A stretch of 64,000 nt of DNA from Sulfurovum sp. TSL1 (lineage in GTDB: Bacteria > Campylobacterota > Campylobacteria > Campylobacterales > Sulfurovaceae), in assembly GCF_019972135.1 (NCBI RefSeq), contig NZ_BPFI01000001.1, forward strand, positions 43,106 through 107,105. The letters run 5' to 3'. The notes below the pieces were generated by a model. The model ran no database searches. It was not told the DNA's origin and was given only the letters and a program-made list of their open reading frames with translations. Below, piece by piece: positions 6,079 to 58,281 of the stretch. The translations under genes were made by a program, and so were the position numbers. Numbering within the stretch: position 1 is the stretch's first letter; every line of letters starts with the position of its first letter.

Positions 6079-6108
6079 AAATACAATATTTGGTGAAATA
6101 TTGTATTT
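6079..6108. terminator. Perfect 13-bp inverted repeat (AAATACAATATTT / AAATATTGTATTT, 4-nt loop) between convergent genes; candidate bidirectional terminator
   Basis: Seen directly in sequence between the TRAP permease stop (6066) and the corA stop (6113). AT-rich stem, no classic U-tract. Confidence 0.3.
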
Positions 6109-10622: not shown

Positions 10623-11402
10623 ATGGAACTTTCATCAAAACTGACACTGGAAATGTTAGGTAAACCTTTTTTGCTCGAGAAGCGTATAGAACTGCTCCAT
10701 GCCATAGAAAAGTATGGCTCGATCTCTAAAGCGGCGAAGGCTGTACCGATGAGTTATAAAAGTGCATGGGAAGCAGTGGATACGATGAACTCTCTTTCCC
10801 CGCAGCCGATCGTCTGTAGAGAGACAGGCGGAAAAGATGGTGGCGGTACGACCATTACTGCCTATGGCAAAAGGCTTTTATCAAATTATGCACTGCTTAA
10901 AGAAGAACATGATCGTTTTTTAAAAAGGTTATCAGAGGCAACAGATATCCAAAGCGGTGCATTTGAGACCATTGAAAGACTTGCCCTGCAAATCTCTGCA
11001 CGCAATCAAATACAAGCTGAGGTTGTGTCTGTGGAATCTGAAAATGTGAATGCAAAAATACGCCTAAAGATGAAAAGTGGGCAAGAACTGGTATCTGTCA
11101 TTACCAAAGAAGCAGTAGAGAACTTGCAGATTGAAAAGCATCAAACGGTTACAGCGATATTTAAATCCAGTACAGTACTACTCTCACGGGACAACGATGC
11201 AAAGCGAGCAGAAAATAGACTGAAAGGTACGGTCACAACCATAGACAAAGATATAGAAAATGCCAAGGTAGTCATGGATATAGGCAATCATGACAGTATC
11301 GTTTCAGTGATGCCTGTAAGTGTTTTGGAAGGGATGGAAATTCATGAAGGCAGTGTCGTGACGGCTATGATAAAAGCAAATGATGTGATGTTAGGAAGAT
11401 AA
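10623..11402 (+). CDS. modE: Molybdate-responsive transcriptional regulator ModE (HTH + two TOBE/Mop domains)
   Basis: N-terminal ModE-type HTH (GSISKAAKAVPMSYKSAWEAV) followed by two Mop-like repeats. Confidence 0.7.
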   Translation: MELSSKLTLEMLGKPFLLEKRIELLHAIEKYGSISKAAKAVPMSYKSAWEAVDTMNSLSPQPIVCRETGGKDGGGTTITAYGKRLLSNYALLKEEHDRFLKRLSEATDIQSGAFETIERLALQISARNQIQAEVVSVESENVNAKIRLKMKSGQELVSVITKEAVENLQIEKHQTVTAIFKSSTVLLSRDNDAKRAENRLKGTVTTIDKDIENAKVVMDIGNHDSIVSVMPVSVLEGMEIHEGSVVTAMIKANDVMLGR

Positions 11403-20335: not shown

Positions 20336-21655
20336 ATGTACGACATTCTTTATATCGGCGGTGGTCTGAACTATGCAGGGGCCATTGTGGCTTCGAAAGA
20401 GGGGTTTAAAGTGGCGCTGGTCGAAACTTCACTGGGGCATTTGGGTGGTACCTGTCTGTATGAAGGGTGTATCCCTTCTAAAATGTTCTTGCATCATGCC
20501 AATACCGTACGTCAAAGTAAAGAGAGTGTGTTTACAGGGAAACTCGTACTGGATATGCCGACACTGACAGCCCAAAAAGATGAGCTCATCGCCAGTGCAT
20601 CCGAATCCATAAGGGCACAATGCAAAGATGTGGAGCTGATCGAAGGTAAAGGCAAGCTCATCGCACCGCACAAAGTGGAGGTGGAAGGGAAGATCTATGA
20701 AGCAGAGCATATTGTCATAGGGACAGGGTCTTCTCCTTTCATACCAGAAGGTATAGCGTATGACGGAAAGGCGATCATCACCAGCACAGAGCTGCTTGAT
20801 CTGCAGAAACTGCCTGACAATATAGCCATCTACGGGGTTGGTGCCATCGGTTTGGAGATGGCCAGTTTCTTTGCATCTGCAGGTGTAGAGGTGACACTAC
20901 TCTCCCGTCATGAAAGGCTCTTGGGCCATGCACATCCGATGATACAAGAGGCCATGGCCAAAGAGCTTGAAAAGCAGGGGATCACCTATCTGACTGGCCA
21001 TGCCGTTTCCAAAGCTGAAGCTACAAACAGAGGCGTACATATCACTTTTGAGAATGGCACATCGGGCGAGTATGAGCAGATGCTTGTTGCTACCGGACGT
21101 CAGCCCAATACGGATGTGGTCGCAACCGATGAGATCGCTGTAAAGAGAGGGATAGAGACAGATGATTTTTTTCAAACGAGTCTAAAAAAACATTTTGCGA
21201 TCGGTGACTGTAACGGAAAAATACAACTGGCCCATGCGGCAAGAGCCCAAGCTTTGAACGTGACGATGCGGATCATGGGCAAAAAACCACAGAAACTGAA
21301 CCTTGATCATGTGGTAAGGTTCATACATACCTTGCCTATGAGTTATGCAACCGTGGGACAAAACAGACAGAGACTCGAAGAAAAAGGCATAGAGTTTCAA
21401 GAGAGTAGCGTCATGCTGAGCCAATTTAAACCTGCTGCATTCCACCAGGCGGGGAACGGTGTAATGGTCGTCTATGCAGATACGTCAGGGCTCATACTGG
21501 GTGCAGAGATCTTTGCCCCTAATGCCGAAGAGCTCATTCCACCTGTGGCTATGGCCCTTGCAGGCGGGATGACGGTTTCGATGGCACAGCAGACCATTAT
21601 GGCGCATCCTACGTTTTCTGAAGCACTCGAAAGGAGTTATTTCAGAATAGGATGA
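20336..21655 (+). CDS. Class I pyridine nucleotide-disulfide oxidoreductase, dihydrolipoyl dehydrogenase-like
   Basis: GGGLNYAG FAD-binding motif, redox-active GGTCLYEGCIPSK disulfide, C-terminal HAHPTFSEAL dimerisation motif. Confidence 0.7.
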   Translation: MYDILYIGGGLNYAGAIVASKEGFKVALVETSLGHLGGTCLYEGCIPSKMFLHHANTVRQSKESVFTGKLVLDMPTLTAQKDELIASASESIRAQCKDVELIEGKGKLIAPHKVEVEGKIYEAEHIVIGTGSSPFIPEGIAYDGKAIITSTELLDLQKLPDNIAIYGVGAIGLEMASFFASAGVEVTLLSRHERLLGHAHPMIQEAMAKELEKQGITYLTGHAVSKAEATNRGVHITFENGTSGEYEQMLVATGRQPNTDVVATDEIAVKRGIETDDFFQTSLKKHFAIGDCNGKIQLAHAARAQALNVTMRIMGKKPQKLNLDHVVRFIHTLPMSYATVGQNRQRLEEKGIEFQESSVMLSQFKPAAFHQAGNGVMVVYADTSGLILGAEIFAPNAEELIPPVAMALAGGMTVSMAQQTIMAHPTFSEALERSYFRIG

Positions 21656-21667
21656 AAAAGCAAAGCA

Positions 21668-22285
21668 TTACAACCCCTTCATCACAATTTCAAAGAGGTA
21701 GTCCACTTCATGATCTTCCAGGAACACTGTTTTTTTACTCTTAAAAAAGTCCAGTACTTTTTTGGTAGGCAGTGCAGGTGTGTAGATACATACCGGGTGT
21801 GCCGGGATGAACGACTGCATGAGGGCGATCTCTTCTTCTATACGGGTTTCACAGATATAGCAGTGTTCATCATGATGCAGTCTGCCTTCATGTTCGAGCA
21901 GTGTGATGTAAGATTCACAGACGATACGTTTAGGATTCTGTTTATCCCATTTTTTGGCTGCAGAGAGAAGAAGATCGAAGTAAAATGAGTCTATCTCTTC
22001 TGCATCTTTGAGATGCGGTTCAAAGCGTTTGATAAAATTGTGCCAGATCAGAAGTCTGTTTTTGTCAAAGAGCCAGGGAAAGCCCATATGTGAGAGTGAG
22101 CGCAGTCTGGGAAGAAAACTGCCCCCTTCACCTTCCACTTCGAAATCTATCAGGTTGCCAAGCTGTAAAATGGAGTGTCGTGCACCAAAAAAACGGTAAT
22201 AGGTTCTTACTTCCGTAGGACTCAGCACAAGTGCTATGGTGTCTTCATTTTTTGCTTTTCTGACAGACAGTATAAAACCTTTGAT
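21668..22285 (-). CDS. recO: DNA repair protein RecO (apparent non-ATG start)
   Basis: N-terminal OB-fold consensus (IKGFILSVRKAKNEDTIALVLSPTEVRTYYRFFGARHS) and C-terminal Cys/His cluster. The in-frame region upstream of the tracked GTG has no ATG. An ATC codon at 22283-22285 has AAAGGA 6 nt upstream. Confidence 0.55.
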   Translation of the reverse strand: MKGFILSVRKAKNEDTIALVLSPTEVRTYYRFFGARHSILQLGNLIDFEVEGEGGSFLPRLRSLSHMGFPWLFDKNRLLIWHNFIKRFEPHLKDAEEIDSFYFDLLLSAAKKWDKQNPKRIVCESYITLLEHEGRLHHDEHCYICETRIEEEIALMQSFIPAHPVCIYTPALPTKKVLDFFKSKKTVFLEDHEVDYLFEIVMKGL

Positions 22286-22303
22286 GGTAATTCCTTTAAT
22301 TTT

Positions 22304-22322
22304 TTGCCTAAATTATAGGCAA
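22304..22322. promoter_or_regulatory. 19-bp palindrome TTGCCTAAATTATAGGCAA immediately upstream of recO start; candidate operator or hairpin
   Basis: Perfect 7-bp arms (TTGCCTA/TAGGCAA) seen directly in the recO/gltB divergent intergenic region. Confidence 0.3.
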
Positions 22323-22462
22323 AAGCATGTTAAAATATCCAAATATCGCCCTTTGTAGGGTAGAGTTGGTAAACTAAGCTTAACAACCTTTTGGCTATAA
22401 TCCCTCCAATTACGAGGAGCACTGTATGATGCTCCGATGATATTATTTTTAAGGTTGGTATT

Positions 22463-44955: not shown

Positions 44956-45273
44956 CTGTTACCTTTGCTTTTTAGTGTATTGTATCTAAAGTCTACTATA
45001 CGTAATGTACAACCTATCATATTAAACGACTCTTTGGACCTCCGGGTTTTGTCTTCATTGGTCCTGATGGTAAAGAGATCAAAGATGCAAAGTTTTACGG
45101 ATATCAAGAACCTGAAGAATTTTATGATACATTAGATCTGATAGCAGAGTAAAAAGGCTTCAAAAGCGTCAAATGTACACCTCTCTTTCCAAATGTTTTG
45201 GAAAGAGAGGTATTGTTGCCAAGTGACTGTGCATTTTAGTTATAATTTTTCAAATAAGAATAAAGGACAGATC

Positions 45274-48496: not shown

Positions 48497-51400
48497 TTAT
48501 TTTGTATCGCTAAGCGATTCCGCCAACTTCTTAGCTCCCTTAAAATCAGCCTTACCCGTACCGAGCTTAGGTAACGCTTCCACTTTGAAGTACTCTGATG
48601 GTACAAAAAGAGGGTTCATTTCAATGTCTTTGATCTTCTCTTTCAATGCGTCCAATTCCATCTCCCCCTCAAGCAAAAGCACGAGCTTCTCACCTTTCTT
48701 AGCATCAGGCAGGGCAGCAATGGCTATCTGGTCATTTTCCCCCAGTACCTTAATTATTTCACCCTCGACAAGCCCCAGGCTTACCATCTCTCCGGCGACT
48801 TTGGCAAAACGGCTGTAGCGGTCGACGATGGTGAGGAAACCGTCTTCATCCAAACGGCCTTTATCTCCCGTGACATACCAGCGTATACCGTCTATCTCTT
48901 TGATGACCGAGGCTGTTTTTTCAGGGTCACCGATGTAGCCTTTCATGATCTGTGTTCCGCCGATGAGTATCATGCCTTCTTCACCGGTTTTCAGTGTTTC
49001 AAAACTCTCAGGATCTACGATACGAAATGTGGAACCAGGCAGCGGCAGACCAACGGTACCTATTTTTTGACCGACCTGTGGTTTCCATGAGTCCAGCATG
49101 AGTACATCAGGCATATTGACTGAAGCTACAGGGGTAGTCTCTGTCGCACCGTACCCTTCATAGATGTCAAGTCCGAACTTCTTTTTAAACTCATCACGTA
49201 TCTCATTGGGCAGTTTCTCTGCACCGGCAACTACCATACGTATATTTTTGAACATGAGTGGTGTAAGCTTCCGGTTCCTTGTGTAGAGTCTAAGGAATGT
49301 AGCCGTTGCCAACAGGATGGTCGCCTCATATTTCGCTGCCATTTTCCCTATGCCAAAACCATCCGTAGGATCAGGATGTGATGCTACCGGTATACCTTCG
49401 ATCAACGGTAATAGGGTAGTGACGGTCAAACCAAAAGAGTGGAAGATAGGCAGTGTACCAAGCATCACATCGCTATCTGTAGGGTTCAGCAGGGTTGCTG
49501 TCTGCTTGATGTTACCCATGATGTTTCTGTGGCTTAACGCTATACCTTTTGGTGTACCTTCTGACCCTGATGAAAAGAGAATGGCTGCCGTGTCATCAAG
49601 CTTTGCATTTTTTATAAACAGCGCACTGAGCAGCCATGCAGGTAAAGTTTTCACCACTATCCACATCAAAAGACTTTTTGTTTTGCTTAGATTCCCTTTG
49701 ATCTCTTCAAGATAGATGACTTCTACATGTTTAAGTACCTCGGTCATATCAAAGCCTTTGGCTTTGAGTTTAGTGATAAACTGTTTTGAAGCGACAACTT
49801 TTGTGATATCGGCGATCTTCAGTGCATGAAGCAGGCTATCCGCACCGGCTGAGTAATTGAGGTTTACGACCGTTTTCCCCAGTGTAAGCAAAGCCATATT
49901 CCCCATAGAGCCCCCTGCAGATGTAGGTAAGAGCAAACCTATGTTTTGACTTTCTTTTAGTTTTGGTTTGAGTGCAGCAGCCATCATGAGCGTTGCTGTG
50001 ATGAACCTCTCTCCACTGAGTTCCACACCTGTAGAATCAGCGATACAGAGGCTTGAACCGACATTTTTAGCAGAGCGTATCCATGCTTTTTGTAATACGG
50101 GTAAAGACTCTGCATAATGCTGCCAGCTTTGAACAGAGAGATCAAATACGGATTTTTTTACTTCCGAAGCCGTGGAGTGAATATCTATAGGCTCTGCAAA
50201 ACTCACAGAGATGTCTCGACTTTTGTTACGTTTCATCTTGTTGGATGCGTAAGAGAAGTTGTCTTCCCAGAGCCCTCTGAGATAAAAAGGTATGATCACT
50301 GCATCTTCTACCTCTTTGGTTGCCATTTCAAACCCTCTTTGAAATGTGCCCAAGTGTCCGTTACGCGAGAGATGCCCCTCCGGAAAAAGTGCTACAGTTT
50401 CGCCGCGGTTCAGTGCTTCGGTCACTTTCACAAGAGCACTCTTACTTCCCCTGCTGGAGATAGGTATCACCCCAAAAAAGTCTAAAAACGGTTTGAGGTA
50501 CCACTTTTCATAGTAAGATCTTTCCATCACAAAACGTATCTGTTTTGGGTATGCCATCTGTAAGACAGCCCAGTCTAAAAATGAAATGTGGTTCCCTAAA
50601 AGCAGTATGCCTTTATCCGCTTTTATATGGTTCAGTCCATCCACGTGTAATGTGTACTTAAAGCTTATAAGCATACGAACCATATAACGGATGAGTGACT
50701 GCGGCAGCTTGATAAACGTATAGACCATACCCAAAAAAGCGATAGTAGAGATGATATAAAACAGCCCTATGGCAGAGAATTGGAAGTACCCAAAAACGGC
50801 AGTTAAAACCAAAAACAGGAACATACTCACATTTTGCATGAAGTTATTGCCTGCAAGTACTTTACCCAGTATTTTGTGAGGTGATGCAAACTGGATCATG
50901 GCATTGAGCGGAACAATGAAGAGGCCTGAAAAGAACCCAAAAGATAAAAGTGCCATACCTAATGCCCATAAAGAAGTAAGAGATGGGATCATATAGAGTG
51001 AAAGTGCCACGCCCAAACTGCCAAGAGGTATGATACCCGTCTCTATGTAGTTCTTACTCACACGTCCTGCAAACATGGAACCCAGTATCATACCGATACC
51101 GGCGAGTGCCAATAAACTTTGTGCCGTGATCGTATTGGTGATGCCCAGTGTGCTTTTTAGATATTCACCGAATATGGCTAAAACCACTTGCGAAACACCC
51201 CACAGAATAGAGAGCCCGATAATACTTAACCAGATCGTTTGTTTTTGTCTTAAGAGAGAAATATTACTTTTTAAATAAGAGAGGTTCTTATACTCTTTGG
51301 GTTCAAAGGTCATACTTTCATCGATATCGACAGCCTTGAACGTACGTACCAGTCGTCTGGCCAATAGGTACTCTACGGTACTGGCACCTATAAGCAAGTA

Positions 51401-57030: not shown

Positions 57031-57046
57031 CACAGTAAAAAGCATT

Positions 57047-58213
57047 TTACTTTTTACTCTTTACAAACTTTTCGATACGTCTGATACCTTCACGGATCGT
57101 TGTGATGTCTGTAGCAAAGGAGAATCTAAAGTAACCTTCTGATCCGAAACCTATGCCGGGAACAACAGCAACACCGGTAGACTGAAGCAGCTCTTTACAG
57201 AACTCTATAGAGTCATTTGAGATATCTTTGATATTGACGAAGAGATAAAATGCACCTTGGGGTTTAAGGACAGAGAGACCGTCAATGTCGTTAAAGAGTT
57301 TGACTGCCTCTTCTGCTCTTCCCTCAAACGCTCTTCTCATTTGTTCTATTTCACTGTCGACTTCACCAAGCAGGGCAGGGATAGCTGCTTTTTGTGTAAT
57401 AGAGTTGATGTTTGAGGTACTTTGGCTTTGAAGCTTGTTCATGGCAGCTATGAGCTCTTTGTTCGGTGTCGCCAGGTATCCAAAACGCCATCCTGTCATC
57501 GCCACAGATTTGCTCAGACCATTCACGGTCACCGTTCTTTGGTACATATCTTCACTGATACTTGCCGCGGCTACAAAGTCAATGTCATAGACAAGCTTCT
57601 CATACATTTCATCACTGACCACCATGATATCCGTACCTTCTAGTACCGCTGCAAGTGCTTCGAGTTCTTCTTTGGAATAAACTGAACCCGTAGGGTTTGA
57701 CGGAGAAGTCAATATGACCATTTTTGTTTTAGGTGTAATGGCAGCGCTGAGCTGATCAGCGGTCATTTTGAATCCGCTGATCTCATTGGTCTCTGCAATG
57801 ACAGGTACCGCGCTTGCATATTTGACCAATTCAGGATAGGTGACCCAATAGGGTGAAGGAATGATGACCTCGTCACCTTCATTCAGTACTGCTTGAAAAA
57901 GATTAAAAAGAGACTGTTTTGCACCATTGCTTACGATAATGTCTGAAGGTGCGTAGTCAAGGTTGTTGTCTCTTTTCAGTTTGGCTGCTACGGCTTCTAA
58001 AAGCTCTGGTATACCCGGTACTGCAGTGTATTGTGTAAACCCGTCATTGATCGCTTTGATAGCCTCATCTTTGATACGTTGCGGTGTCCCAAAATCCGGT
58101 TCACCCGCAGAGAAAGAAAGAATATCTTTTCCCTGTGCTTTTAAATCACGAGCAAGCGAAGAGATGGCTATAGTAAGAGAGGGAGAGAGTGTTTGTATAC
58201 GGTCTGAAAGCAT
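57047..58213 (-). CDS. Pyridoxal-phosphate-dependent aminotransferase (class I, aspartate aminotransferase-like)
   Basis: 388-aa fold-type I aminotransferase with SKSVAMTGWRFGY PLP-lysine region. Confidence 0.8.
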   Translation of the reverse strand: MLSDRIQTLSPSLTIAISSLARDLKAQGKDILSFSAGEPDFGTPQRIKDEAIKAINDGFTQYTAVPGIPELLEAVAAKLKRDNNLDYAPSDIIVSNGAKQSLFNLFQAVLNEGDEVIIPSPYWVTYPELVKYASAVPVIAETNEISGFKMTADQLSAAITPKTKMVILTSPSNPTGSVYSKEELEALAAVLEGTDIMVVSDEMYEKLVYDIDFVAAASISEDMYQRTVTVNGLSKSVAMTGWRFGYLATPNKELIAAMNKLQSQSTSNINSITQKAAIPALLGEVDSEIEQMRRAFEGRAEEAVKLFNDIDGLSVLKPQGAFYLFVNIKDISNDSIEFCKELLQSTGVAVVPGIGFGSEGYFRFSFATDITTIREGIRRIEKFVKSKK

Positions 58214-58281
58214 ATGAAAACCTTTGATTATAAATTGGATAATTGTAGCAAAAAATGCGTTAAAAAAAGCCGTTGATTTTT

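Follow-up and report, generated by a model that had tools for sequence, protein, structure and literature searches.

Where does translation of recO begin in Sulfurovum sp. TSL1? The gene lies on the reverse strand of the stretch analysed here (hereafter, the window: 64,000 nucleotides of contig NZ_BPFI01000001.1, to which all coordinates refer), and public databases place its start at two different codons. Mechanical ORF calling yields a frame at 21668..22228 (-) that encodes 186 aa and opens with GTG (MLSPTEV...), a start which the preliminary description of this locus had recorded; the product matches exactly a GenBank protein of Sulfurovum sp. TSL1, GIT97239.1. For the same genome, RefSeq offers a protein of 210 aa, WP_308443042.1 (MKGITIKGF...), starting at an ATT codon (22298..22300). 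Our analysis argues for neither of these codons. Instead, recO is probably translated from a near-cognate AUC (ATC at 22283..22285, -), a reading to which we give a probability of about 0.82 on comparative sequence evidence. The coding sequence as reinterpreted would occupy 21668..22285 (-), with the ATC as the first of 205 codons before the stop codon, and the RefSeq start would lie five codons upstream of it.

Candidate start codons and the N-terminus of RecO

Upstream, the recO frame is closed by an in-frame TAA (22313..22315), located 10 codons before the ATC and inside a -10 hexamer described below. After this stop, the frame reads F R Q K I K G I T I K G F I L S V R K A K N E D T I A L V and then reaches the GTG (22226..22228), which is codon 20 when counted from the ATC. 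Not a single ATG, GTG or TTG occurs in this frame between the TAA and that GTG. The preliminary description had correctly reported the frame as open and devoid of ATG and GTG, and the absence of TTG can be added to that. Its remark that the only other NTG is a CTG also holds, this codon being codon 6 (22268-22270). Three near-cognate codons are found in frame: ATT at 22298-22300, ATT at 22289-22291 and the ATC at 22283-22285; the two ATT codons had been left out of the earlier account. A Shine-Dalgarno (SD) sequence, AAAGGA (22292..22297, -), precedes the ATC by 6 nt, with ATTACC as the spacer, as had been described. The same hexamer directly adjoins the ATT at 22289-22291 and lies downstream of the ATT at 22298-22300. 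It is unpaired in the predicted mRNA fold, and the leader together with the first codons is predicted to be unstructured (z = -0.38).

We also considered whether starts at ATC, ATT or ATA (collectively, ATH, or AUH in mRNA) might be a genome-wide habit. A scan of about 64 long ORFs of the window returned recO as the sole convincing case in which an SD is combined with ATH or CTG inside a long open upstream stretch. In one other gene, an SD is followed by ATA a single codon ahead of the ATG. Two ORFs, 10623-11402 (+) and 57047-58213 (-), are preceded by open stretches of 39 and 30 codons, respectively, upstream of their first canonical start, and neither stretch holds an SD with a near-cognate candidate. 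A special tRNA encoded close by was considered as well, and the window contains no tRNA genes.

Family models place the N-terminus of RecO at the ATC. Read from this codon, residues 2-205 of the protein cover positions 2-204 of the 204 positions of NF010483, the NCBIfam equivalog profile for Campylobacterota RecO, with a score of 279 bits against a cutoff of 137. The Pfam domain RecO_N_2 (PF13114) aligns residues 2-71 with its positions 2-70 of 71 (83.8 bits; cutoff 27). The only solved relative, PDB 7YMO, aligns over its full length, and its native Met1 (MQGFIL...) falls on the ATC codon. In an AlphaFold2 model of the window RecO (mean pLDDT 69; 81 over residues 1-10), β-strands are predicted at residues 2-11, 15-21, 25-30, 45-51 and 58-63, so the N-terminal OB-fold strands begin at residue 2, and 7YMO likewise aligns from its Met. 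In the C-terminal half, a Cys/His cluster (C142, C145, H163 and C166) shows no variation in alignment A1 or in the corresponding columns of alignment A3. Overall, the window RecO resembles the Campylobacterota proteins described by NF010483, PF13114 and 7YMO in full length, N-terminal strands and Cys/His residues, while its gene departs from theirs in the start codon only: the closest relatives of 7YMO (L081-L084) use ATG.

Start codons and ribosome-binding sites among relatives

A survey with one genome per species provided 80 Sulfurovaceae recO loci (L001-L080), or 81 with the window. At the codon aligned with the window ATC, the 80 relatives carry ATC in 43 cases, ATG in 25, ATT in six (two of which, L073 and L077, come from one MAG) and ATA in six; GTG and TTG never occur there. 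Most Sulfurovum species share the arrangement of the window, with ATC far commoner than ATA or ATT, while sister lineages have ATG at this position, mostly without an SD. The choice of ATC does not simply mirror codon usage, as it makes up 80% of ATH codons at position 1 versus 33% of the Ile codons within these genes. With the window counted, 39 of the 56 ATH loci lack a canonical start throughout the open frame upstream, and in all ATH loci but one, an in-frame stop closes that frame 2-26 codons upstream. Downstream, the first canonical start lies anywhere from codon 5 to codon 156, which means that recO has no conserved start there.

The start codon goes together with the ribosome-binding site. 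An SD core 4-9 nt upstream was present in 55 of 55 ATH loci versus two of 25 ATG loci (Fisher p = 4e-18, with phylogeny ignored). In ATH loci, the SD is typically AAGGAG, GGAG or AAGGA at a spacing of 5-7 nt. A stronger SD in these loci is not what distinguishes them, as the pairing energy equals that of ATG loci (p = 0.59); the difference is one of position, the SD standing at 5-7 nt in ATH loci and being absent or at about 11 nt in ATG loci. We also considered GGTGG as the SD of ATG-type loci and rejected it, given that this sequence is the reverse complement of the divergent promoter motif TTAACCACC...TATAAT.

Conservation of the protein type switches on exactly at the ATC-equivalent codon. 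From codon 1 onwards, amino-acid entropy is about zero while third positions are free (GGG/GGT/GGA/GGC, TTT/TTC). At codons -1 and -2 of the ATH loci, entropy amounts to about 3.3 bits, codon -3 is the SD itself (GGA/GAG), and stop codons appear from codon -4 upstream. Several relatives have other in-frame options nearby, namely TTG at codon -4 in eight loci, ATG at -2 in L036 and ATG at -8 in L068; moreover, codon -1 is ATT or ATC in 15 of 55 ATH loci. In such relatives, the true first codon could be a few residues away from the ATC equivalent.

Some details of these neighbouring codons deserve a separate mention. Tandem near-cognates (ATT ATC, ATC ATC) are seen, for example, in L001-L004, L012, L015, L019, L021 and L025; they exceed what composition alone would give, and the cases cluster phylogenetically. 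In L036 and L068, the two closest relatives of the window, one more ATG is found in frame ahead of the conserved ATC. That of L036 directly adjoins the SD, at a codon that is ATT in the window. That of L068 falls on the predicted transcription start, 7 nt past the -10 box, and has no equivalent in the window; given this position, it could be a leaderless start.

With these data, the other proposals for the recO start can be weighed. That recO starts at the ATT at 22298-22300, as RefSeq models it for TSL1 and for Sulfurovum sp. AR, seems to us improbable. This ATT is a near-cognate codon too, and a weak AGG is found 6 nt upstream of it. However, the conserved SD lies downstream of it, so that AAAGGA would be translated as Lys-Gly, and the likeness of the resulting "MKG" to the family N-terminus would stem from reading the SD as codons. 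Nor is this ATT conserved: at codon -5, L068 has ACT and L007 has ACC, and across ATH loci this position shows 3.5 bits of entropy and seven stop codons. If the conserved -10 box is used, no more than about 5 nt would separate the ATT from the predicted 5' end of the mRNA.

Even less credible, in our opinion, is a start further downstream, whether at the GTG (22226-22228) of the GenBank model, at the ATA of codon 5, in the style of the RefSeq protein of Sulfurovum sp. XTW-4 (P0002, 201 aa, starting at codon 5), or at the CTG of codon 6. The GTG is the first canonical start codon in the frame and is the one used in GIT97239.1. Against this group of starts stand K2, G3 and F4, which show little or no change in the amino acid while the third codon position is free, and which must therefore be translated. 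No SD precedes the GTG, and the SD lies at least 18 nt from codon 5. Nor is the GTG conserved among ATH loci, and orthologues of RecO do not begin at its equivalent; NF010483, RecO_N_2, 7YMO and the 25 of 80 species with ATG all agree on the ATC position. A start at the GTG would remove 19 residues required by the family models and, judging from the predicted strand positions, would delete the OB-fold strand 2-11 together with most of strand 15-21. The preliminary description, which had warned that a GTG start would cost the protein a conserved N-terminal β-strand and had proposed initiation at the ATC, thus finds support from family models, orthologues, the SD and the coding boundary alike.

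The least likely of all is that a single G-to-C change in an ATG produced the ATC, as a sequencing error (a possibility raised in the preliminary description) or as a start-loss mutation in a decaying pseudogene: the same codon class (ATC, ATT or ATA) is shared by the assemblies of 55 other species and by 35 metagenome contigs, which in practice excludes a base-call error, every ATH locus keeps its SD, 80 of 81 loci have an uninterrupted ORF of 205-206 codons (the remaining one is cut by the end of its contig), and dN/dS is 0.03-0.08 at dS from about 0.9 to more than 2. Such strong purifying selection on intact genes means that recO is not a pseudogene and that the ATC is not a sequencing error.

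A metagenome scan with a profile headed by 7YMO served as an independent test and as a source of farther relatives, although some of its contigs duplicate MAG contigs of the first set. The recO start codons found in this way were ATG (41), ATC (23), ATA (7), ATT (5), GTG (2) and CTG (2). ATH starts were confined to sequences sharing 73% identity or more with the window protein, and Campylobacter-like loci had ATG. The SD core 4-9 nt upstream was again present in all ATH loci (35/35), in few ATG loci (6/39), and in both the CTG (2/2) and the GTG (2/2) loci. Two metagenome lineages about 50% identical to the window RecO (L120 and L154) have an apparent CTG start with AAGGA 7 nt upstream, and two others (L096 and L099) have a recO GTG with an SD; in this manner, non-ATG recO starts reach beyond the ATH clade. 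The wider distribution was covered by the metagenome scan alone.

Neighbour-joining protein trees, each being the gene tree of one 205-aa protein, require at least five switches between ATG and ATH in 100 of 100 bootstrap replicates, with a median of seven. Among the four codons, at least 16 changes are needed, and ATG is the usual root state. ATG reversions nested in the ATH clade (L016, and L104 and L128 from metagenomes) are without an SD.

Public annotation of the RecO N-terminus is mixed. Predicted lengths of Sulfurovum RecO proteins in the database (P0001-P0129) range from 139 to 229 aa, a scatter that arises because gene callers choose different substitute starts. Several MAG orthologues are annotated by NCBI at 205 aa; one of them, P0016, is the translation of L011, where the DNA codon is ATC, so NCBI already annotates an ATC start for one orthologue. 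The conserved M-KGF start is found in 55 of the 120 best database homologues. Annotation pipelines, in other words, already resort to non-canonical recO starts, and do so inconsistently.

The promoter region and the inverted repeat

Downstream, recO faces a convergent gene for a dihydrolipoyl-dehydrogenase-like flavoprotein, which ends at 21655; upstream lies the divergent gltB (start 22463, +; NF008730, 1815 bits). With such neighbours, recO is most likely monocistronic. A 22-nt promoter motif, TTAACATGCTTTTGCCTATAAT, is located at 22312..22333 (-) and ends in the -10 hexamer TATAAT (22312-22317); the promoter scan matched 10 of 12 positions. The consensus of the motif is TTAACA-N3-TTTTG-N-CTATAAT. 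On the recO strand, it occurs 22-33 nt upstream of the ATH codon in 28 ATH loci; counted on either strand, there are 62 matches in 81 loci (window included). The window itself contains four matches versus 0.22 expected. One of them, TTAACAACCTTTTGGCTATAAT at 22380..22401 (+), would serve the divergent gltB and, with the recO copy, makes up a 22-nt inverted repeat, I1. A further copy is found at 58242-58263 (-). No more than 10 nt separate the TTAACA element from the -10 box, less than a classical -35 would require. The motif may represent either a local housekeeping promoter architecture or a shared regulatory site. If transcription begins at the predicted promoter, the SD would be the only element in a recO leader of about 20 nt.

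Most ATG-type loci have the divergent promoter right next to the recO ATG, 6 nt away. In four distant ATG-type loci (L065, L067, L069 and L079), a TGnTAnAnT-like -10 box stops 6 nt short of the recO ATG and an SD is absent, which suggests that their recO mRNAs may be leaderless. On the gltB side, the predicted 5'UTR includes a hairpin, GGAGCA-N8-TGCTCC (22416-22435, +). In L068 it reads AGAGCA/TGCTCT, a two-sided change that keeps the pairing, while one pair is lost in L036 and one in L007.

The -10 box and the predicted transcription start of recO are overlapped by an inverted repeat, TTTTGCCTA-N5-TAGGCAAAA, at 22302..22324. The preliminary description had listed here a perfect 19-bp palindrome, TTGCCTAAATTATAGGCAA (22304-22322). 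Its arms do match perfectly, but the 19-mer as a whole differs from its reverse complement, and the repeat is larger, with 9-bp arms (22302-22310 and 22316-22324) flanking a non-palindromic centre of 5 nt. The palindrome had also been presented as a neighbour of the recO start. Its position is real; the evidence, however, links it to the -10 region of the promoter and not to initiation. The left arm, TTTTGCCTA, belongs to the promoter motif, and the right arm, TAGGCAAAA, covers the predicted transcription start. Only the window, L036, L068 and L007 have the palindrome, and an insertion in L068 and L007 cuts its arms to 7 bp; the other ATH loci read TTTTGACTATAATTAAAAAAA at the right-arm position. 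In the four loci, the right arm does not stand out, as the whole intergenic region is 89% identical among them. Conservation of both arms beyond that of the promoter, expected of an operator, was not found.

By itself, the palindrome is only mildly unusual: five places of the window contain inverted repeats whose arms reach 9 bp or more and whose loops measure 3-8 nt, giving nine nested hits versus about 1.9 expected from Markov simulations. The other four perfect repeats, with arms of 9-11 bp, are located at 6081-6106, 45183-45207, 50324-50346 and 57034-57058. Those at 6081-6106 and 57034-57058 are situated between convergent gene ends and look like bidirectional terminators, and the one at 45183-45207 overlaps the start of an ORF at 45193. 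We considered an RNA hairpin as the role of the recO palindrome and rejected it, since the left arm is the -10 region, untranscribed from that promoter, and the start region is predicted to be unstructured. An operator repeated in the window was rejected as well: there is one other near-match (1 mismatch, inside a gene), and three of 100 shuffles reach two. We therefore regard the palindrome as part of the promoter, made up of the -10 region and a lineage-specific complementary stretch at the predicted transcription start, and as either a candidate operator or fortuitous.

Probable near-cognate initiation of recO and its significance

The scenario that we favour is as follows. A monocistronic recO mRNA would begin about 20 nt upstream of the AUC, at the conserved promoter whose -10 box holds the in-frame stop. 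The optimally spaced SD would position initiation at the AUC and partly offset the weakness of this codon. The initiator fMet-tRNA would pair with the AUC via a third-position mismatch, so that RecO would begin with Met. In E. coli, AUA, AUC, AUU and CUG give 1-2% (0.02-3%) of the output of AUG, and an AUC-initiated protein carries an N-terminal Met (10.1101/063800); IF3 disfavours weak third-position pairs (PMC10158994). By extrapolation from E. coli, the outcome would be a low, IF3-sensitive production of RecO. Lineages with AUG might reach a similarly low output through the absence of an SD, and we infer that the purpose in both cases would be to keep RecO scarce. It is tempting to go further and to suppose that AUC with a strong SD is a selected regulatory device, tying RecO synthesis to the state of initiation fidelity (IF3-to-ribosome ratio, stress, slow growth) and repeatedly assembled in Sulfurovaceae with a dedicated promoter copy, AUC being favoured over AUA, AUU, GUG and UUG. 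We put this forward tentatively and consider it rather doubtful.

Conserved near-cognate starts are known from infC, which encodes IF3 (AUU/AUA), and from pcnB (AUU) of E. coli and other bacteria (PMC2830850, 10.1101/063800); in E. coli, only two non-canonical starts are confirmed, both AUU (10.1101/063800). As in these genes, in recO a conserved, SD-dependent AUH codon may limit the synthesis of a low-level protein, by analogy. There are differences as well: infC and pcnB prefer AUU, whereas recO prefers AUC; infC senses its own product, whereas recO shows no apparent autoregulatory logic; and, unlike in infC and pcnB, the AUH trait of recO is confined to Sulfurovaceae and was gained or lost at least five times. 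Another precedent is dnaA of Deinococcus, for which an ATC start was shown by N-terminal proteomics with TMPP labelling (Baudet et al. 2010, PMC2830850). Both cases concern an ATC start, conserved among congeners, in a gene of DNA metabolism, and in both, earlier annotations gave heterogeneous N-termini, while re-annotation restores a conserved one. The Deinococcus start is backed by N-terminal peptides and that of recO by comparative sequence alone; on the other hand, the recO case covers many more species, and its SD co-varies with the start codon. The literature held nothing specific on non-canonical recO starts, on ATT, ATC or ATA starts in Campylobacterota or on translational limitation of RecO. 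Overall, the comparative data would make recO a new, well-supported member of a known, rare class of genes with near-cognate starts.

For strain TSL1, the re-assignment corrects a conflicting annotation (186 aa in GenBank versus 210 aa in RefSeq), the proteins of relatives being annotated at 185-221 aa, and a rule such as "start at AUH or AUG before KGF" would correct hundreds of entries. Verified natural AUC starts are very rare, while here, an AUH start of one gene is found in about two thirds of the sampled species of the family. The repeated gains and losses, the preference for AUC, the lack of GUG and UUG in Sulfurovaceae and the near-perfect coupling of a non-AUG start to an SD amount to a natural experiment. 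The pattern seen in recO shows a trade-off of start-codon strength versus SD strength, and it makes this gene a test system for near-cognate initiation and IF3 discrimination outside E. coli.
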